Positions 8,022-14,813 of a stretch of DNA of 15,851 nucleotides are shown here, in pieces; the stretch's first letter is position 1, and the number at the start of each line of letters is the position of its first letter. The position numbers and the translations under genes were made by a program. A model generated the notes under the pieces. The model had not been told where the DNA came from. It searched no databases and worked only from the letters and a program-made list of their open reading frames with translations. The stretch covers positions 1-15,851 of the IMG/VR virus record IMGVR_UViG_2684622669_000012; one strand, 5' to 3'. Source of the DNA: a virus. Its lineage: Duplodnaviria; Heunggongvirae; Uroviricota; Caudoviricetes.

Positions 8022-8634
8022 AGGTGCACTATAATTCCACCCGTTCTGGTTTTCAATAGCTACATTCAACATTTTCTCTACCTTTCATCACCTGAGTGAA
8101 CTTTGTTGATGCGGTGCCTGGTGCCTCCAGGTGACGTTAACCAGTTAACAATTAACGCCGGATGACTCACCCATAACACTCATGTTTTTAACTGTTCCGC
8201 GTGCGCTTAGCCGCATTCACCGCATCACAAAATTCACTTTAAAAAGGGCGGCAGAGCAGTCACGGAGTAAAACTGATACCGCCAAACGCCACCAGAAAAT
8301 TGATAACAGAGGGCGTTGTAGCGGGGTTGTCACTTAAGCGTATGGTCAACCTGACAACCCGGTGTCCTCAACGGGGAAGGAATAACCCAGCCATACTTAC
8401 CGCCGCGCCATTTCGCGGAGTGCCACAACCGGAAGCGCACGGTCGAATTAAATTTAACGACACCGTACAGAGAGACCAATTTCGCCGTGCGCTTTCGCGT
8501 TATGCCCTGGCTTTTCAGGGATATATCCTTTCAGTAAACTGTCAGTACCGGATTCTTATCCGTGTCCGGCGCACGACCACACGTGACAGCGTGTTGGTCT
8601 CCATTTTTAACCCAGAACCTCAATGGAGGATAAA

Positions 8635-8844
8635 ATGCCAAACAAAAAAAGAAATCCGCTTATTGAAAAAAAGATTGAATGCCTGGTAAATCAACTCAGG
8701 CAATCAGGGTTATTAAAAACTCATTCAGAGTTGAGGCTCACAGAATCAGCATTCGACGATAAATTAAATAATGTCCTTTATAATGGCATTATTGATTTTA
8801 ATCGTTCTGTTGGTCGCCGCGGCCCTGCTGGTGTTTCCTTATAA
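8635..8844 (+). CDS. Hypothetical protein (69 aa), convergent with the 216-aa gene
   Basis: ATG at 8635 with GGAGG 5 nt upstream; Lys-rich N-terminus (MPNKKRNPLIEKKIE...); stop abuts the stop of the opposite-strand gene with no spacer. Occupies the position that sieB holds in Rac (memory). Confidence 0.45.
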   Translation: MPNKKRNPLIEKKIECLVNQLRQSGLLKTHSELRLTESAFDDKLNNVLYNGIIDFNRSVGRRGPAGVSL

Positions 8845-9495
8845 TTACCAGTCAATCCAGAGCGGACCGTGTTCAGCGTAAATATAACTGTACACATCCA
8901 GATTATATTTGTGGTCTGTTAAGAACAGGCCGCAAATATATGCCGAAGCTTCCAGGGCAGCGGCTCTGTTACTGAATAACCATGTAGCAACATTCCAGCG
9001 TTTTTCTGCATCCCAGTCTTTCTCAAGGCCTGATACCATGAAGAAACCGTTAGTGTTGCCATCAAATAATTCTGTTTCCAGATTTTTAAGCAATGCCTGA
9101 TGGACTCTTGCCAGGTATTCCGCCGGAATTTCGCCACGAATTCTGATGAGATTGTCATAAACAAACATGTTCCCCGCATATGGCGATTCTTCTTTCTTGT
9201 TTTTTAAACCAGCATCATGAGCAAACTGATCAATTTCTTCTTCCGTTGGTTTCGTATTGATGTTTTGCGCTGTCGTTTCTGCAATTTTATTTGCCACACT
9301 CTCTGAGTCGTGTTTATTTACAGACGCACAGAAATACAATCCGGTAAACGCATCGCGCACATTACGAGCCATATTATCAGTGTCTTTTTTCGTTACCGAT
9401 TCCAATGCAAGTTCGTTCAGACGATGACGAAGTGTGTGTGCTGCAATCTCCTGGATTGAAGTAGGTAAATCTTTAAATTCCATCGTCAACCTCAT
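8845..9495 (-). CDS. Hypothetical protein (216 aa) of unknown function; accessory (moron) candidate
   Basis: Long clean ORF; start ATG overlaps the TGA stop of the upstream 50-aa gene (TGATG); alternative start 4 codons in has a GAGG RBS. No motif I can assign; soluble, acidic, no obvious TM segment. Confidence 0.7.
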   Translation of the reverse strand: MRLTMEFKDLPTSIQEIAAHTLRHRLNELALESVTKKDTDNMARNVRDAFTGLYFCASVNKHDSESVANKIAETTAQNINTKPTEEEIDQFAHDAGLKNKKEESPYAGNMFVYDNLIRIRGEIPAEYLARVHQALLKNLETELFDGNTNGFFMVSGLEKDWDAEKRWNVATWLFSNRAAALEASAYICGLFLTDHKYNLDVYSYIYAEHGPLWIDW

Positions 9496-9647
9496 CAGTC
9501 AGAGTTTCTTGCTAACCAGCGATGCGCGCCAGCTTCGGTTTTAAACGTTTTACTTTTGGTATACGTCATCGCGGTGAACGTGCCGTCCTGGTTGGGAAAC
9601 ACGCCGTACACCAGAGATTCGTTGTTGCCAAGATCGATAGTATCCAT
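9495..9647 (-). CDS. YdaF/YdfA-like small phage protein (50 aa)
   Basis: Below the 60-aa ORF-track cutoff. ATG at 9647 with GAGG 5 nt upstream; product MDTIDLGNNESLVYGVFPNQDGTFTAMTYTKSKTFKTEAGAHRWLARNSD resembles the small proteins encoded just downstream of the repressor in Rac (ydaF) and Qin (ydfA), from memory. Confidence 0.65.
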   Translation of the reverse strand: MDTIDLGNNESLVYGVFPNQDGTFTAMTYTKSKTFKTEAGAHRWLARNSD

Positions 9648-9771
9648 GCTGACCTCATTTCCCCTTAACGCCGGGGGAGCGGAACTAAGACCTGTCGCAC
9701 CGTTGTGCTTTGATGGAATACATTGCTCTCTTTAGGTGAACAAAAGTCAACATGATGAATACGTAAAAAAC

Positions 9772-9794
9772 AAAAAAAACCGCCTTGTGGCGGT
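9772..9794 (-). terminator. Rho-independent terminator downstream of the repressor gene
   Basis: Minus strand reads ACCGCC-acaa-GGCGGT followed by 8 T; lies 22 bp past the repressor stop. Confidence 0.6.
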
Positions 9795-9815
9795 ATGATT
9801 CTGTAAAATAAAGAA

Positions 9816-10205
9816 TTATTTTTGTCGTGTTATTGGGTCGACGTATTCTGAGTAAAATTCAGTCAGTTTTTGGAGTCGCATTTGAAAAGCTGCCAGCATA
9901 TTTCTACGTTCTACAGGTGGCAGGTTTCTGTAAACATCAAGCAGGGCCTTCTCGTCATCATCAAGCGCCTCTCTATTTGTCTCTTCTTTCCCTGTCAGTA
10001 GCCAAGAAAGGGAAACGTTTGTGGCTTCTGCAATTTTGGCTGCGGAATCTTTACTGATTGTTCCTCTTTTTTTCCATGCGTTGACTGATGAACGACCTAC
10101 ACCAGCGATACGCGCTAAATCTGAACCACTTAAATGATGCTGTTGAGAGATCGTATCTAACCTTTCTGCTAGCGGGGTGTCGTATTGCTTTTTTCTCATG
10201 TCCAT
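9816..10205 (-). CDS. Prophage repressor, Cro/C1-type HTH (XRE family), short form without S24 peptidase domain
   Basis: 129 aa; HTH at LSGSDLARIAGVGRSSVNAWKKRG; divergent from the cro-like gene; far too short to include a LexA-like autocleavage domain. Confidence 0.8.
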   Translation of the reverse strand: MDMRKKQYDTPLAERLDTISQQHHLSGSDLARIAGVGRSSVNAWKKRGTISKDSAAKIAEATNVSLSWLLTGKEETNREALDDDEKALLDVYRNLPPVERRNMLAAFQMRLQKLTEFYSEYVDPITRQK

Positions 10206-10308
10206 TTGGCAATTATAACCGTTCAGTGAACACTAACAATTCCTCGAGGTGTTGACTTATGTTCGCTTTAAGTGAACAATTATTGTGGTTAGTTGAACTG
10301 GAGGTTGT
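10206..10308. promoter_or_regulatory. Divergent promoter/operator region (pRM-like leftward, pR-like rightward)
   Basis: Minus strand: TTGTTA - 16 nt - TATAAT ending 6 nt before the repressor ATG, implying a leaderless or near-leaderless mRNA. Plus strand: TTGACT - 17 nt - AACAAT upstream of the cro-like gene. Repeated AGTGAACA motifs at 10236-10248 and 10274-10286, including the palindrome GTTCAGTGAAC. Confidence 0.6.
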
Positions 10309-10584
10309 ATGACAGCATTGGACAAAGCAATAAAGATTGCTGGTGGTATTCGTCCGCTAGGGCGTGCAATAGGGGCTTGGCCATCTCAAATACACAAATG
10401 GGCAAATGAATACAATGGTCGAGTGCCGACGGGAGAACGGGTTCGTCAAATTTATATTGCAACTGGGGTTACTCCTCATGAATTGCGACCAGATTTATAC
10501 CCGAATCCAACTGACGGGTTGCCTGCTGGAGATAAGGCTAACACACCAAATACACCGGAGTTGATTCATGAAAATCAAGCATGA
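10309..10584 (+). CDS. ydaS: Cro-like HTH regulator, YdaS family
   Basis: 91 aa; GGAGG RBS; contains the YdaS-type motif (ERVRQIYIATGVTPHELRPDLYP) as recalled from Rac YdaS; first gene rightward of the operator region. Confidence 0.75.
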   Translation: MTALDKAIKIAGGIRPLGRAIGAWPSQIHKWANEYNGRVPTGERVRQIYIATGVTPHELRPDLYPNPTDGLPAGDKANTPNTPELIHENQA

Positions 10585-10993
10585 ACACATCCGCATGGCG
10601 ATGAATGCCTGGGCGCGTCCTGATGGCGAAAAAGTTCCAGCAGCTGGAATAACCCAGGCTTATTTTGAGTTGGGTATGACGTTTCCTGAACTGTATGACG
10701 AAAGCCATCCGGAAGCTCTGGCTCGCAATACTCAGAAAATTTTCCGCTGGGTGGAGAAAGATACTCCTGATGCGGTTAAAAAAATTCAGGCGCTGTTACC
10801 AGCGATCGAAAAGGCAATGCCACCTTTGCTGGTGGCCAGAATGCGCAGCCACAGTTCAGCTTATTTTCGGGAGCTGGTGGAGACGCGGGAGCGACTGGTG
10901 AGAGACGCTGATGATTTTGTCGCAGTGGCAATCGCCGGTTTCAATCAGATGAACCGTGGTGGCCCGGCAGGAAATGCTGTGGCAGTACATTGA
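10568..10993 (+). CDS. ydaT: YdaT-like protein (CII-position regulator/toxin family)
   Basis: 141 aa; starts MKIKHEHI as Rac YdaT does (memory); overlaps the ydaS-like gene by 17 nt. Confidence 0.75.
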   Translation: MKIKHEHIRMAMNAWARPDGEKVPAAGITQAYFELGMTFPELYDESHPEALARNTQKIFRWVEKDTPDAVKKIQALLPAIEKAMPPLLVARMRSHSSAYFRELVETRERLVRDADDFVAVAIAGFNQMNRGGPAGNAVAVH

Positions 10994-11064
10994 CTGACAA
11001 TAGCCATATCGAATCGCTTCCGGCAACTCGTGAGTAAAAAGATTCGGTATCAGAAGAGGTGAGT

Positions 11065-12135
11065 ATGGCTAACGCCTGGCTCAGATTATGGCATGACATG
11101 CCAAATGACCCTAAGTGGCGAACAATTGCCAGGGTGTCAGGGCAGCCAATTGCAACAGTGATGGCAGTGTATATCCACCTCCTGGTGAGTGCGTCACGAA
11201 ATGTCACGCGAGGTCACATTGATGTCACGACAGAAGATTTGGCAAGTGCGCTCGACGTGACAGAAGAGGTAATTGATTCAATTTTGCAGACGATGCAGGG
11301 GCGGGTACTTGATGGTGATTTAATCACTGGATGGGAAAAACGCCAGGTGCTTAAAGAGGACAACGGCAATATTTCGCAAACCGCAAAATCTCCTGCAGAG
11401 CGCAAGAGGGCGCAGCGAGAGAGGGAAAGAAAGCGGGAACAAAATGGCGATTGTCACGGCGCGTCACGAAATGTCACGCACATGTCACGACGAGTCACGA
11501 CAGATAAAGATACAGATAAAGATACAGATCAAGAAGATCAAAACACTATGGTCCATGGCGTAAAAAACGCCACGAACCAGGCAGGGGATGTTCAGACCGT
11601 CAATCCTGGTCAGCCAGCAGGCACGACACCGGAAGCCGATTCAGCGTATGCGCTGAAAGCCGATTCGGGCGCTGTGCAGCAGGTGATGACCGGAAGGCCG
11701 GAGCAATCACACCAACTGCAGCAGCCTGAAGCCGATTCCGCCATTCAGCGGGAAGCCGATCGGGTAGTCCCGGAAAACACCGGGCAGCCTGTGGGACGAG
11801 TGGATTATCCGGATGTGTTCGAACAGGTCTGGCGGGAGTACCCGTTGCGTGCCGGAGCAAACCCGAAGAAATCCGCTTTCAGTGCCTGGAAGGCCAGATT
11901 ACGCGAGGGGGTGCCACCAGAGGCCATGCTGGATGGCGTGAGGCGTTACGCAAGATATCTGGCGGCTACCGGGAAAACGGGAACGGAATTTGTTCAGCGA
12001 GCGACGACCTTTTTTGGACCGGACCGGAATTTTGAAAACCCCTGGTTGCTCCCGGTAAGCGGCACGAACAACCAGCGTTGTGTGAATCATATTTCTGAAC
12101 CGGATACCGAAATTCCGCCGGGCTTCAGGGGGTAA
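11065..12135 (+). CDS. Replication initiation / replisome organizer protein (O-like) with internal origin iterons
   Basis: ATG at 11065 after GAGGTG (ORF track uses GTG at 11059). Two GTCACG iteron arrays inside the gene encode repeated ASRNVT..VTT peptide segments, followed by an A/T-rich tandem repeat; position is immediately after the cII-like gene. Confidence 0.7.
   Translation: MANAWLRLWHDMPNDPKWRTIARVSGQPIATVMAVYIHLLVSASRNVTRGHIDVTTEDLASALDVTEEVIDSILQTMQGRVLDGDLITGWEKRQVLKEDNGNISQTAKSPAERKRAQRERERKREQNGDCHGASRNVTHMSRRVTTDKDTDKDTDQEDQNTMVHGVKNATNQAGDVQTVNPGQPAGTTPEADSAYALKADSGAVQQVMTGRPEQSHQLQQPEADSAIQREADRVVPENTGQPVGRVDYPDVFEQVWREYPLRAGANPKKSAFSAWKARLREGVPPEAMLDGVRRYARYLAATGKTGTEFVQRATTFFGPDRNFENPWLLPVSGTNNQRCVNHISEPDTEIPPGFRG
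11193..11229. repeat. Iteron array 1: four GTCAC(G) repeats at ~10-11 bp phasing
   Basis: GTCACG at 11193, 11203, 11224 and GTCAC at 11213. Confidence 0.6.
11463..11526. repeat. Iteron array 2 (four GTCACG repeats) plus adjacent A/T-rich 12-bp tandem repeat; candidate ori
   Basis: GTCACG at 11463, 11473, 11484, 11494; first 19 nt identical to array 1 (GCGTCACGAAATGTCACGC). Followed by GATAAAGATACA x2 (11503-11526). Confidence 0.6.
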
Positions 12136-12175
12136 GTGTTTATTTCAGGTCATGAGGTAATTTTCAGGAGGACTT

Positions 12176-12598
12176 GTGGCAAAAGTATTTACACAGGAAG
12201 AGCGAGAAAAAATTAAAGGGCAGGTTGTTGAACTCGTACGCCAGAGTGGGCGTGAGACGTTACGACAACTGGAAGCTAAAACTGGGGCAACAAGATATCT
12301 GATGAGCGTTCTCGCAAGAGAGCTGGTTGCCAGCGGCGATGTATACAACTCTGGTTACGGGTTATTCCCGTCTGAACAGGCGCGTAAGGACTGGCAAAAT
12401 GCCCGTAAAAAGCTCTCAAGGGCAAAGCTGAAGAAACCATCTGCGGTTGATCTGGACCTTATCTGGTCATTACCAGACGGAGAAATACGTCGCTACGACA
12501 GGCGCCTGAATATAATCTGTCGCGAGTGCCGGAAGAGCGAAGTTATGCAGCGAGTGCTGGCGTTTTATCAGGGAAATTATCAGGGGGGCTGTGAGTAA
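12176..12598 (+). CDS. Hypothetical phage protein (140 aa)
   Basis: GTG start with GGAGG 5 nt upstream; occupies the slot after the replication initiator but has no Walker A motif, so it is not a DnaC/P-type helicase loader. Confidence 0.7.
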   Translation: MAKVFTQEEREKIKGQVVELVRQSGRETLRQLEAKTGATRYLMSVLARELVASGDVYNSGYGLFPSEQARKDWQNARKKLSRAKLKKPSAVDLDLIWSLPDGEIRRYDRRLNIICRECRKSEVMQRVLAFYQGNYQGGCE

Positions 12599-12651
12599 AA
12601 TTAGCTATCAGGCTTCAATTATCGCTGGCATTCGCATCAAAGGAGAGGACC

Positions 12652-13008
12652 ATGGAAATAAAACCAGAAGATGAGTTAAGTAATATTGTTTTATTTCCGG
12701 TAAAAGAGGATGACCCACGCAATCAGGTTAATTTTCTTTATGAGCCATCGGAAAGACCATATTGCCATCACGCTTCTGTCCGGGTTGACGAAAAAGTGCG
12801 TCAGGTCCGCTGTAAAATCTGCGGTGCAGTTGTGGAGCCATTTGACTGGATGCTCTCTGTGGCGAAAAGAGAAAGCAGACTGGCAGATGATGTAAGGCTC
12901 TTGCGCCAGGAGGAACGGGAAAGGCGGAGAAATATAGAAAAGCTAATTCAGATTGAGCGTAACGCGAAAGCACGTATACGCAGGGCGGCAAAATCAAGAA
13001 CTGAATAA
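12652..13008 (+). CDS. Hypothetical phage protein with Cys-rich segment and basic coiled-coil-like tail (118 aa)
   Basis: AGGAG RBS; Cys/His cluster (PYCHHASVRVDEKVRQVRCKIC) then an Arg/Glu-rich C-terminus. Confidence 0.7.
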   Translation: MEIKPEDELSNIVLFPVKEDDPRNQVNFLYEPSERPYCHHASVRVDEKVRQVRCKICGAVVEPFDWMLSVAKRESRLADDVRLLRQEERERRRNIEKLIQIERNAKARIRRAAKSRTE

Positions 13009-13103
13009 TTAAATTTAGCACTGTTAAAAATTTAATCCTTAACCGGAGGGATTTCTGCACCCTCAGAACATCAGGAGACCGCCTGAAAGGGCGGTAATGA
13101 AAA

Positions 13104-13667
13104 ATGACTGAATTAACCAAAGAGCAATTAATCGAAGAAGCTAAATTAAAAATAGCGATTGCGAAATGCCATCCCAATTCAGGGATGGCACGAGTAGAGG
13201 GTGAGTTATTCAAAATTGCATTGGCATCGCTGGAAGCAGAACCGATAGCGTGGGAATGCGGCGAAAAAATAATCCTGTTTAATCCTGATATAGTTGAAGC
13301 ATACGCAAAACGTGCGGAGATATCACCTAAACCACTATTCGTCGCTCCACCTGTGCCGGTAGTGCCTGAAGGACTGGTTAAAGCTGTGCGCTTTTATGAA
13401 CAGGTACGGCGTGAGAATCCTCCAGTCGAAACAGGAGCATGGAAAGACGCTGTTGATTGGGTACTCAAAGAGGCCTGCTGTGCTGCCATTCTGGGTAAAG
13501 CCGACAATCCCCCAGCATCCGGCAATCAGGTTAGCGAATTAACAATGTGGGTTAAGCGACTGGTCAGCCAACTGAAAAAAGCTAAGCCGGACTGCAAATT
13601 ACCGGAGAAGGCGATGGACTACCTGAAGCGAAACGGACTGATAAGCGCGGAGGATATTTTGCGATGA
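13104..13667 (+). CDS. Hypothetical phage protein (187 aa)
   Basis: Clean ORF; its stop overlaps the start of the following mini-ORF (ATGA). Confidence 0.7.
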   Translation: MTELTKEQLIEEAKLKIAIAKCHPNSGMARVEGELFKIALASLEAEPIAWECGEKIILFNPDIVEAYAKRAEISPKPLFVAPPVPVVPEGLVKAVRFYEQVRRENPPVETGAWKDAVDWVLKEACCAAILGKADNPPASGNQVSELTMWVKRLVSQLKKAKPDCKLPEKAMDYLKRNGLISAEDILR

Positions 13668-13747
13668 CCTGGCCTGAAGCATTTACAACGGTAGGAATTG
13701 CGATAGCGGTGGCGCTGGTGGTGTATTCGATTTGCCGCTGGGGGTAA
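13664..13747 (+). CDS. Candidate 27-aa single-TM peptide
   Basis: ATGA stop/start overlap with the upstream gene; GGAGGA 9 nt upstream; product MTWPEAFTTVGIAIAVALVVYSICRWG is one hydrophobic helix. Below the ORF-track size cutoff. Confidence 0.4.
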   Translation: MTWPEAFTTVGIAIAVALVVYSICRWG

Positions 13748-13908
13748 GGTATTAAAAAACGCCCCGCACACAGAAGTTGAGCGCCTGAGATATGGGGATA
13801 GGGAGTCAGTTAAATAGTTATGCAACAATACCTGATTTTATATTGAAGCAAGAAATAGGTTGCTACATATTGAATCATGCGCGTGTGCGTCAAATATGGG
13901 AGGTCATC

Positions 13909-13998
13909 GTGCTGGTTCTGAAATGTGCGCTGGCTATTGCGGCTGTAATGGCAATTTATTGTCTTGTTATTGTTCTTATGGAGCACCTTTCTGATTGA
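13909..13998 (+). CDS. Candidate 29-aa hydrophobic peptide (alternative long form 13792..13998)
   Basis: GTG at 13909 preceded by GGGAGG at 5-nt spacing; product (M)LVLKCALAIAAVMAIYCLVIVLMEHLSD; in frame with the 68-aa ORF-track entry, whose own start has a weaker RBS. Confidence 0.35.
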   Translation: MLVLKCALAIAAVMAIYCLVIVLMEHLSD

Positions 13999-14209
13999 TT
14001 TCATATTGGCGAGGTAACGGGAGTTAAGTAGAATGGCTGCGGGTGCTTGAGGCTATCTGTCTCAGGCATGAACACCAAAGGCAGATAGAGAAAAGCCCCA
14101 GTTAACATTCGGCGTCCTGCAAGACGCTTAACATTAATCTGAGGCCCAATCTATGTCTCACAAATGTAGGTTAGCCTCTTACGTGCCGAAAGGCAAGGAG
14201 AAGCAGGCT

Positions 14210-14365
14210 ATGAAGCAGCAAAAGGCGATGTTAATCGCCCTGATCGTCATCTGTTTAACCGTCATAGTGACGGCACTGGTAACGAGGAAAGACCTCTGCG
14301 AGGTACGAATCCGAACCGGCCAGACGGAGGTCGCTGTCTTCACAGTTTACGAACCTGAGGAGTAA
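14210..14365 (+). CDS. hokD: Hok/Gef-family type I toxin (membrane peptide)
   Basis: MKQQKAMLIALIVICLTVIVTALVTRKDLCEVRIRTGQTEVAVFTVYEPEE: near-identical to HokD/RelF as I recall it (one A/V difference). AAGGAG RBS; the ORF-track entry adds an in-frame 19-codon upstream extension. Confidence 0.9.
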   Translation: MKQQKAMLIALIVICLTVIVTALVTRKDLCEVRIRTGQTEVAVFTVYEPEE

Positions 14366-14434
14366 GAGACCCGGCGGGGGAGAAATCCCTCGCCACCTCT
14401 GATGTGTCAGGCATCCTCAACGCACCCGCACTTA

Positions 14435-14456
14435 ACCCGCTTCGGCGGGTTTTTTG
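14435..14456 (+). terminator. Rho-independent terminator at the hok mRNA 3' end
   Basis: ACCCGC-ttcg-GCGGGT followed by a T-run. Confidence 0.6.
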
Positions 14457-14585
14457 TTGTTTATTTTCAAGACGTTTGAGCTTTTTGAAGGTGCCGGAAT
14501 AGAATCAAAAATACTTAAGTAGCGCGCAGGGAGAAGAGGGATGGACCCCTTAAGGGGAAATGTTAAAAGTTCATAGGGTTTTGTT

Positions 14586-14753
14586 ATGAATGATAAGGAA
14601 TTAATTGCTGCGCTTTCTGTACCGGGTAGTTATGAGGTGATAACCCTTGCAAATGGAGAGTTTATTGTAATGCCGTTACCACCCGACGCCATTCTGATCA
14701 CTAAAGAATCTCACATGGATTCTGTCAGCCACTTCTGTATTAAAGAAGACTAA
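14586..14753 (+). CDS. Hypothetical small protein (55 aa)
   Basis: ATG-initiated ORF below the ORF-track cutoff; weak RBS (AGGG 9 nt upstream); no family recognised. Confidence 0.4.
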   Translation: MNDKELIAALSVPGSYEVITLANGEFIVMPLPPDAILITKESHMDSVSHFCIKED

Positions 14754-14813
14754 ATTATACTGGTGAAGCCAGCCTGAACAACTGGCTCCTGTCGCACCAT
14801 TACGAGGGTTGTA

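Follow-up and report, generated by a model that had tools for sequence, protein, structure and literature searches.

A predicted complete hok/mok/sok module and two probable small membrane-protein genes upstream of it in a lambdoid prophage of Escherichia coli

Three small ORFs for hydrophobic peptides, the last of them a Hok toxin, lie in series in the 15,851-nt stretch of viral DNA analysed here (IMG/VR record IMGVR_UViG_2684622669_000012, positions 1 to 15,851; hereafter the window). The first-pass annotation, which recognised this series, left two possibilities for the toxin gene: a degenerate hok locus, or a hok locus with a differing mode of regulation. Alignment and a covariance model refute both of these and recover instead an intact, canonical hok/mok/sok arrangement. 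We hold with high confidence that positions 14006-14457 form a complete canonical type I module of the hok/mok/sok kind, and that the two ORFs upstream of it, here called orf27 and orf29, are separate conserved membrane-protein genes. The prophage that carries the module is a lambdoid one of E. coli, and the module lies in its early, nin-like part.

The toxin gene itself (hok, 14210-14365, plus strand) encodes a 51-aa Hok/Gef protein of the HokD/HokW type, with the length of about 50 aa and the N-terminal TM helix that mark the family. Its product, for which the PGAP name is HokD, matches Pfam HOK_GEF (PF01848; 77.3 bits, cut-off 22), confirming the original assignment, and PHROG 251 ('MokW-like host killing') with an E value of 7.8e-32. 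The SD of hok is found within AAGGAGAAG at 14195-14203 (plus strand). A consensus scan places the hok promoter at 14006-14034 on the same strand (TTGGCG, a 17-nt spacer and TAGAAT), with a predicted +1 at about 14041; it directly precedes the leader element tac, the expected position, and its -10 box is conserved among 119 family sequences. The terminator hairpin reported earlier is also there, at 14434-14451 and followed by a T-run, the whole terminator (14434-14457, plus strand) comprising a stem of 7 pairs, 5 of them GC, together with a 4-nt loop and the run of T. A weak isrK-like match at 14374-14455 (30.5 bits; gathering score 50) was taken as terminator-like noise. As had been remarked, no relBE-like pair stands upstream: the preceding ORFs are orf29, orf27 and the gene of a 187-aa PHROG 660 protein.

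The only upstream extension of hok is in frame with it (14153-14365, 70 aa), a correct observation, which had been set against an overlapping mok frame in another register. A mok can nonetheless be placed, as the in-frame ORF is itself mok: a 70-codon leader ORF on the plus strand, co-terminal with hok, whose ATG at 14153 lies 19 codons ahead of the hok ATG. It has its own SD (GAGG, 14142-14145, 7 nt before the ATG) and is read across the hok initiation region. Among 168 related loci, 139 have the same geometry as here (a 57-nt offset, in frame), and minority offsets include 58 nt, out of frame, in 4 loci and 56 nt in 2; K-12 mokB and the plasmid Mok (DUF5431) are likewise out of frame. The in-frame arrangement is the majority state of the lineage and the annotated state of K-12 mokC/hokC, and the frame of mok relative to hok is no defining feature of hok/sok loci. 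Work on plasmid R1 has found that mok translation matters only as far as the hok start (PMC9841398); since the frame that mok takes beyond that point is irrelevant to coupling, an in-frame mok is a normal variant. Near-identical loci in which 1-nt indels place mok in or out of frame are natural evidence that only translation to the hok start counts.

The leader has the structure expected of such a locus. The structured-leader family of Rfam, RF01794, which holds the Sok target, matches 14041-14215 over the full model (1-157) with 116.9 bits (E 1.5e-26; gathering score 59), on a par with K-12 hokC (118.3 bits), Sp5 hokW (113.5 bits), hokB (109.7 bits) and the R1-type plasmid locus (106.6 bits). 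The match is to the hok-sense strand and encloses, on the other strand, the annotated sokC. Taken over its full length, leader and terminator included, the hok mRNA (14041-14456, plus strand) has an MFE fold of -168.2 kcal/mol (z = -6.7). In this predicted structure the 5'-terminal element tac (GGGUGCUUGAGG, 14041-14052, plus strand) is joined by 12 pairs, with one bulge, to its complement near the 3' end, the fold-back inhibition element fbi (CCUCAACGCACCC, 14415-14427, plus strand). Because tac and fbi are both nearly invariant in the family, fbi being conserved even in K-12 hokD, the pairing draws no covariation support here. In the Rfam consensus alignment tac alternatively pairs with ucb (about 14092-14099) in a local 5' hairpin, so that both the long-range interaction and its local alternative are predicted for this mRNA.

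The first-pass annotation had been unable to place a Sok promoter or terminator with confidence. Both parts of one are present on the minus strand, a promoter at 14196-14168 and a hairpin with a U-tail at 14161-14086. The promoter (14168-14196) consists of the -35 box TTGCCT (14196-14191), a 17-nt spacer and the -10 box TAACCT (14173-14168). It is easily overlooked by eye because only 7 of the 12 sigma-70 consensus positions match, by our own count, and a generic sigma-70 promoter scan did not flag it; we placed it by homology to sokC and sokW together with its conservation in the family. It is nearly invariant in 119 distinct family sequences, and the segment that carries it (14164-14212) is identical to that of Sp5, in which the 'pro-less' mutation (primer YO-421), a replacement of just this TAACCT box, does away with the antitoxin activity (PMC8621323). 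The predicted Sok RNA (14086-14161, minus strand, about 76 nt) has its ends mapped from the annotated K-12 sokC. Its 5' end would be a single-stranded tail of 14 nt, complementary to the region where mok starts, followed by a long hairpin and then a U-rich tail. The predicted fold has -31.6 kcal/mol (z = -4.0), and the Northern probe used for Sp5 sokW (YO-592) matches the equivalent segment. At the sequence level, then, the locus encodes a predicted cis-antisense Sok RNA, complete with promoter and terminator, that overlaps the start of mok. The promoter of Sok is fixed and its 5' tail hypervariable, suggesting that specificity diversifies among co-resident prophages.

The anatomy, homology, predicted structures and conservation of 14006-14457 are thus established, and its transcription, processing and toxicity can be proposed by analogy with the experiments on R1 and Sp5. 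A stable full-length hok mRNA would be made from a constitutive promoter, with tac at the 5' end locked onto fbi at the 3' end, leaving both mok and hok untranslated. Slow trimming of the 3' end would release tac, upon which the leader would refold and expose the mok ribosome-binding site. Short-lived Sok, made from the opposite strand, would pair with the mok start region, block mok translation and bring about cleavage by RNase III. As hok translation would require ribosomes reading mok up to the hok start, and would hence depend on mok translation, Sok would control hok indirectly. Once Sok synthesis ended, on prophage induction or loss, Hok would be made, enter the inner membrane and depolarise or lyse the cell. 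No new regulatory model is needed for this locus, since an in-frame mok, an inconspicuous Sok promoter and the absence of relBE are all normal for the hokC/hokD/hokW lineage.

We then asked what the two ORFs upstream of the module represent. The first, orf27 (13664-13747, plus strand), would encode the 27-aa single-pass membrane peptide MTWPEAFTTVGIAIAVALVVYSICRWG from an ATG start. The translational coupling ascribed to it is borne out by the overlap (ATGA) of this ATG with the stop of the 187-aa ORF (13104-13667), and GGAGG stands at 13649-13653. The second, orf29 (13909-13998, plus strand), was also rightly described, together with its strong RBS: it would encode the 29-aa hydrophobic peptide M/VLVLKCALAIAAVMAIYCLVIVLMEHLSD from a GTG start, has the SD GGGAGG at 13898-13903 (plus strand), 5 nt ahead of the GTG, and stops 8 nt short of the hok promoter. 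Three larger ORFs that overlap them were considered as genes and rejected. These were a 68-aa ATG ORF (13792-13998), an extension that is open only in the window and its closest relatives, and two on the minus strand, 13619-13828 (pN/pS 1.37) and 13810-14004 (pN/pS 0.73).

That one or both of these ORFs are untranslated, their conservation reflecting a DNA or RNA element or merely recent common descent, we consider unlikely. Such a reading would fit the lack of family matches and annotation (orf27 is unannotated by PGAP, and none of the 40 orf29 matches listed carries an annotation); it would also fit the supplements of the Sakai intergenic small-gene ribosome-profiling paper, where neither the orf27 peptide nor hok finds a match. 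The pattern of variation in orf27 argues against it. Across 48 nucleotide alleles its pN/pS is 0.18 in frame, a value that none of 200 column shuffles reached, compared with 1.4-3.6 in four of the other frames; the phase-matched antisense frame, at 0.23, contains no ORF of at least 20 aa in the window. Variable sites fall 13, 8 and 22 at the first, second and third codon positions. The SD of orf27 is retained in three different upstream contexts, and its length, start, stop and SD are preserved even at 71% nucleotide identity. With more than 566 relatives in viral contigs and a presence in 1233 of 5426 E. coli genomes, orf27 is probably a real conserved gene and no part of the hok locus.

The signal of coding is no more than moderate in orf29. 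Most of its 29 nucleotide alleles share at least 86% identity, and its pN/pS, at 0.33 lower than in any of the other five frames, is only marginally below the shuffles, 9 of 200 being as low (the antisense phase-matched frame gives 0.45); variable sites by codon position number 8, 6 and 15. Other features speak for a translated gene. The ORF is intact in 28 of the 29 alleles, that is, in all but one of about 100 loci. A purine-rich SD (GGGAGG, AGGAGG, AGGAG or GGGGG) and the GTG are kept across all the main upstream contexts, and mosaic breakpoints coincide with the ends of the ORF. Moreover, a divergent group of loci (L009) has at the same position a 34-aa homologue with a strong SD, 65% identical in nucleotides, which is recognisable at the protein level and for which blastn finds nothing. 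In this group 35 nt separate orf27 from orf29, and the strong SD of orf29 is exposed, the pattern of an ordinary operon gene. Relatives of orf29 number 258 in viral contigs and are found in 1169 of the 5426 E. coli genomes. A genome-wide scan placed them in Escherichia and Shigella only, apart from short, probably mis-binned contigs within MAGs of other taxa; it gained no more-divergent homologues. Altogether, orf29 is probably a real gene, separate from the hok locus. The first-pass annotation had named a lack of conservation in the two small ORFs as what would count against it; both prove to be conserved and both carry a coding signature.

What these two genes do is not suggested by any family in the libraries compared. 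Neither has a significant match in Pfam, NCBIfam, PHROGs or PADLOC; sub-threshold matches of the small peptides to KdpF, ATP synthase c, DUF883_C and Cmr5 were set aside as chance hydrophobic resemblance. The earlier proposal that they are holin-like finds no support in their lack of any holin-family match, in their length of 27-29 aa or in their location, which is outside the lysis cassette: with the replication genes on one side and the DUF968/RusA/Q genes on the other, they sit upstream of Q. They were also compared with independent type I toxins, for which a dedicated antisense or divergent sRNA and a structured 5' UTR that blocks translation would be expected: no Rfam family matches within 13600-14000, orf27 is coupled in translation to the gene before it, and orf29 has in the L009 group the operon-like arrangement described above.

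We also weighed whether orf27, orf29 and hok make up a single three-peptide membrane module, serving Hok insertion, lysis timing or exclusion, and find this improbable. The order orf27, orf29, hok is found in 29 of the 29 loci that hold all three, and a divergent trio exists in which the small ORFs are 71% and 65% identical in nucleotides to those here. Linkage was counted in the best 80 loci of each search, which are hence closely related to one another: in these sets, orf27 has hok downstream of it in 49 of 80 loci when hok is scored by a peptide motif and in 59 of 80 when it is scored by blastn with the hok leader, and orf29 has hok downstream in 55 of 80. However, hok is missing within 1.5 kb in 31 of the best 80 orf27 loci and in 25 of the best 80 orf29 loci, and 41 of the best 80 loci seeded with hok are without either small ORF. 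Moreover, hok owns a promoter and a terminator, its spacing from orf27 ranges from about 100 to 1500 nt, and a shared mosaic neighbourhood explains the linkage equally well. It is similarly doubtful that orf27 and orf29, taken as two new families of single-pass membrane proteins (27-34 aa) in Escherichia lambdoid phages, act jointly with Hok or on the membrane process that Hok affects; if they did, joint action with Hok in lysis timing, superinfection exclusion or Hok insertion would explain the fixed order before hok.

By our preferred reading, orf27 and orf29 are small membrane-protein genes of the preceding rightward operon, mosaic modules that occur with or without hok. Each is present in roughly one-fifth of complete E. 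coli genomes and has been missed by annotation pipelines. A much-studied toxin locus thus has beside it two conserved, unannotated membrane-protein genes, each found in more than 1100 E. coli genomes, Stx phages included. One of the two small genes lies, unknowingly, inside a published hokW-sokW expression construct.

The least probable reading, to which we give very little credence, takes the module for a decayed or silent hok relic, in which mok is in frame because the usual overlapping frame was lost and Sok synthesis has ceased: it can appeal to the generic promoter scan that misses the Sok promoter, to K-12 hokD, itself without a leader, and to the strains K-12, E. coli C and ECOR24, whose chromosomal hok loci were reported unable to mediate post-segregational killing (cited in 10.1101/2025.08.07.668861), but all the elements are present here with scores like those of bona fide loci, there is no IS element and no truncation, the hok ORF is intact, the Sok-promoter segment is that of the functional Sp5 locus, and the in-frame mok is the state of K-12 mokC and of most of the lineage. 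Since these chromosomal hok loci are reported to be unable to mediate such killing, an intact hok locus is not by that token guaranteed to be an active one.

The locus, as a canonical hok/mok/sok module, is of an already known kind. The hok/sok system of R1 and other IncF plasmids has the same architecture, belongs to the same Rfam family and follows the same logic of mok-hok coupling; it differs in serving plasmid maintenance, in not being prophage-borne and in having mok out of frame. HokW of Sp5, a close homologue of the Hok protein here, is only 44% identical to R1 Hok (PMC8621323). Among the chromosomal loci of K-12, hokC (gef)/mokC/sokC has a mok that is in frame and co-terminal with hok at the same 57-nt offset (19 codons), and its sokC reaches 9 nt into the start of mokC, the geometry also seen here. 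Its leader aligns with ours from tac onward, at about 75% nucleotide identity; it differs in having IS186 immediately downstream and in lacking an 18-nt insertion in the Sok hairpin.

The closest characterised relative is hokW-sokW of Sp5 (VT2-Sakai, a Stx2 prophage), a type I TA system in which Hok is toxic, Sok neutralises it and the system aids phage release (Takada et al. 2021, PMC8621323). The locus here is a close allele of it, with 93.0% gap-free nucleotide identity over 14021-14437 (417 nt). Sp5 has the same in-frame 70-codon mok-hok ORF, annotated as 'gef homolog; orf74', and a Sok terminator hairpin that is likewise extended by 18 nt in comparison with hokC. It is also a lambdoid prophage and has an orf27 homologue directly upstream, with orf29 absent. 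The C-terminus of Hok reads FTVYEPEE here and FVDYESEK in Sp5, and 6 of the 17 nt that open the Sok 5' tail are different, with matching differences in mok codons 2-5. Because of these differences in the tail, Sok here and the Sok of Sp5 are probably not interchangeable.

The relation to K-12 hokD (relF), in the relBE-hokD (relBEF) locus of the Qin prophage, is of another kind. The two sequences are 98.5% identical over 275 nt, the hok coding region, fbi and terminator being almost the same, and the neighbourhoods are equivalent, with rem, DUF968 and Q downstream; in PGAP both proteins carry the name HokD. However, the homology extends no more than about 20 nt upstream of the hok ATG: in K-12, relBE replaces the hok promoter, tac, the mok start, the Sok target and the Sok -10 box, whereas the locus here has the full leader and no relBE. 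Judged from these alignments, the module is an allele of Sp5 hokW-sokW and the untruncated form of hokD, and K-12 relBE-hokD is no norm but a truncated derivative of the intact, ancestral arrangement that is preserved here.

Judged by its sequence, the hok locus of the window is a known, intact hok/mok/sok locus, and its apparent regulatory puzzle dissolves. The three small ORFs of the first-pass annotation were all found on reading the window: orf27 (13664-13747, plus strand, 27 aa), whose ATG overlaps the stop of a 187-aa ORF (13104-13667) as ATGA, consistent with the proposed translational coupling; orf29 (13909-13998, plus strand, 29 aa), with a GTG start and its ribosome-binding site, GGGAGG, 5 nt upstream; and hok (14210-14365), whose terminator hairpin was placed at 14434-14451. 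The upstream extension of hok is indeed in frame, as a 70-aa ORF that starts at 14153 and encloses hok. The suggestion that the locus is degenerate or differently regulated did not survive, since alignment and the Rfam model both show a canonical arrangement.

The Rfam model RF01794 covers 14041-14215 end to end with 116.9 bits (gathering score 59); K-12 hokC, Sp5 hokW, hokB and an R1-type plasmid locus score 118.3, 113.5, 109.7 and 106.6 bits, respectively. The model is oriented in the hok sense, with the annotated sokC inside the match on the opposite strand. The promoter scan placed a plus-strand hok promoter (TTGGCG-17-TAGAAT) that ends 7 nt 5' of the leader. In the predicted fold of 14041-14455 (-168.2 kcal/mol, z = -6.7), the 5' element tac (14041-14052) pairs with the 3' element fbi (14415-14427), while in the Rfam alignment bases of 14041-14052 pair with ~14092-14099 in an alternative local hairpin. 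Within hok, the Tyr47 codon TAC together with the G after it forms TACG at 14348-14351, the A-to-I editing motif of TadA. Tyr-to-Cys recoding by TadA has been described at codon 29 of hokB, and likewise in hokC, hokD and hokE (preprint 10.1101/2025.08.07.668861). If TadA edited the hok of the window, the predicted change would be Tyr47 to Cys.

A Sok promoter and terminator, which could not be placed with confidence before, can now be assigned. Mapping the annotated sokC through the alignment predicts a minus-strand Sok RNA from 14161 to ~14086 that folds into a long hairpin between a free 14-nt 5' tail and a U-rich tail (-31.6 kcal/mol, z = -4.0). Its promoter (14196-14168, minus strand) consists of TTGCCT (14196-14191), a 17-nt spacer and TAACCT (14173-14168); because only 7 of 12 positions match the consensus, it was missed both by the by-eye reader and by the generic promoter scan of the window. 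It is nearly invariant across 119 distinct family sequences, and 14164-14212 is identical between the window and Sp5 (VT2-Sakai), the Stx2 prophage that carries hokW-sokW. In Sp5, the 'pro-less' primer YO-421 changes TAGGTTA to CCGGCTC (hok strand), and protection against HokW is lost (PMC8621323); sequence comparison shows that the -10 box so altered is exactly the Sok -10 box of the window. Next to this fixed promoter, the Sok 5' tail, which overlies mok codons 2-5 (14146-14166), is hypervariable, with ~30 variants in the 119 sequences, and 6 of the first 17 nt differ between the window Sok and sokW. These comparisons suggest that prophages residing together diversify in antitoxin specificity. 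The 13000-14800 query, hok included, has a median of 2 and a maximum of 12 matching places per E. coli genome.

The in-frame extension had been taken as a sign of an odd locus; the same geometry occurs in K-12, where mokC (16751-16960) and hokC (16751-16903) are annotated with a common stop codon and a 57-nt difference, the 19-codon offset seen in the window. A 57-nt in-frame, 70-codon mok is found in 139 of 168 related loci (119 distinct sequences), next to four with a 58-nt out-of-frame, 68-codon mok and two with a 56-nt offset. Out-of-frame arrangements are seen for mokB and hokB, a plasmid DUF5431 Mok and the annotated mok of MN652886. By saturation mutagenesis of R1 hok/Sok, translation of mok was shown to be needed up to the hok start, not past it (PMC9841398). 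Therefore the mok frame is not defining.

The window is a lambdoid prophage of E. coli; strain EC12 is 99.9% identical to 13000-14800. Its PGAP gene order runs replication genes, DUF977, two hypothetical proteins, hokD, a small hypothetical protein, DUF968, RusA and antiterminator, with both orf27 and orf29 missing from the annotation. A tRNA-Asn lies at 1899-1974 (minus strand) and a tRNA-Ser(cga) at 2966-3055 (plus strand), directly followed by a 341-aa ORF (3108-4133, minus strand); the latter two probably mark the integrase/attachment-site end. The Rfam scan also found known prophage regulatory RNAs clustered on the minus strand at 7833-8297: C4 antisense RNA (7833-7920, 80.6 bits), isrK (7945-8021, 67.2 bits), a partial, below-threshold STnc100 (8102-8234) and DicF (8246-8297, 76.4 bits). 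An isrK-like match over the hok 3' UTR (14374-14455) reaches 30.5 bits, under the gathering score of 50. Just past the hok terminator, a promoter-like site (TTGAGC-18-TAGAAT, 14476-14505) may serve a rem-like 55-aa ORF (14586-14753).

Neither small peptide matched a family in Pfam, NCBIfam, PHROGs or PADLOC. For orf27, a search with peptide alignment gave >566 relatives in viral contigs, and by megablast 1233 of 5426 complete E. coli genomes contain it. Across its 48 nucleotide alleles, the encoded peptide is mostly unchanged or conservatively altered, and start, stop and Shine-Dalgarno sequence (SD) are kept in three different upstream contexts. The pN/pS is 0.18 in frame versus 1.4-3.6 in four other frames, a value as low being reached by 0 of 200 column shuffles; the phase-matched antisense frame gives 0.23 and holds no ORF of at least 20 aa in the window. 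Variable sites by codon position number 13/8/22. Ea22-, EaA- and DUF551-type genes precede orf27 in different phages, Sp5 included, each ending next to an orf27 homologue; for the window and for Sp5 the ATGA overlap is confirmed. The 187-aa ORF belongs to PHROG 660, and its C-terminal 50-70 residues match the otherwise different PHROGs 924, 8171 and 30109; the shared mosaic unit may be the C-terminal domain plus orf27. In Sp5, an unannotated orf27 homologue is the ORF directly upstream of hokW. Cloning of pBAD18-hokW-sokW (PMC8621323) used a forward primer, YO-432, that begins 6 nt before the ATG of this homologue, and the plasmid therefore includes the 27-aa ORF, placed under the arabinose promoter; in the hokW-sokW deletion of the same paper the ORF is left intact (PMC8621323).

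For orf29, there are 258 relatives in viral contigs and copies in 1169 of 5426 E. coli genomes, with no annotation among the 40 matches listed. Its nucleotide alleles are intact in 28 of 29 cases (all but one of ~100 loci), the GTG and purine-rich SD are retained in the main upstream contexts, and its pN/pS of 0.33 is the lowest among six frames (9 of 200 shuffles equally low). The upstream extension to an ATG, which makes orf29 part of a 68-aa ORF, is not conserved. The family is limited to Escherichia and Shigella. Sequences of orf29 and hok also occur on 2.6-3.3 kb MAG contigs labelled Scatousia, Haemophilus and Collinsella (L253, L254, L256) and in PP818812.1, 'Actinobacillus phage vB_Apl-pPE4', 96% identical to the E. 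coli prophage region of the window; mis-binning or wrongly assigned hosts probably account for these. A compact divergent trio was seen in the viral contig L009 (1088-1400) and ~8 similar contigs. There a 27-aa orf27 variant (1088-1171) precedes, at the orf29 position, a 34-aa peptide (…GVYCLVVFLMDRLGN; 1207-1311) with a strong SD (AAGGAGGG), 65% identical in nucleotides, whose likeness to orf29 is recognisable at the protein level only. A perfect 20-nt palindrome (GATATGGGAATTCCCATATC) comes next, and then the promoter and leader of hok at 1388.

Motif scans covered 240 loci, the 80 best-scoring per search and hence closely interrelated. Around hok, 41 loci had neither small ORF, 17 orf27, 10 orf29 and 11 all three, with one lacking the hok motif; orf27-seeded loci comprised 45 with orf27 and hok, 4 with all three and 31 without hok, and orf29-seeded loci 41 with orf29 and hok, 14 with all three and 25 without hok. 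The order 27, 29, hok holds in 29/29 loci with all three, and hok carries a promoter and a terminator of its own. Our reading is that orf27, orf29 and hok are mosaic modules that assort independently within a fixed neighbourhood; a functional tie among them is a possible but unsupported reading. The remaining interest lies in two conserved, unannotated, putative small membrane-protein genes, orf27 and orf29.

Among known systems, Sp5 hokW-sokW shares 93.0% gap-free identity with the window locus over 417 nt. It is by experiment a toxin-antitoxin system of type I, its toxin appears after mitomycin C in a RecA-dependent manner, and phage release is about halved without the locus (PMC8621323). 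As for relBE, its absence from the window would, on these comparisons, be the ancestral, intact state: homology of K-12 hokD to the window begins only ~20 nt 5' of the hok ATG and then continues, and relBE-hokD is therefore a truncated derivative.
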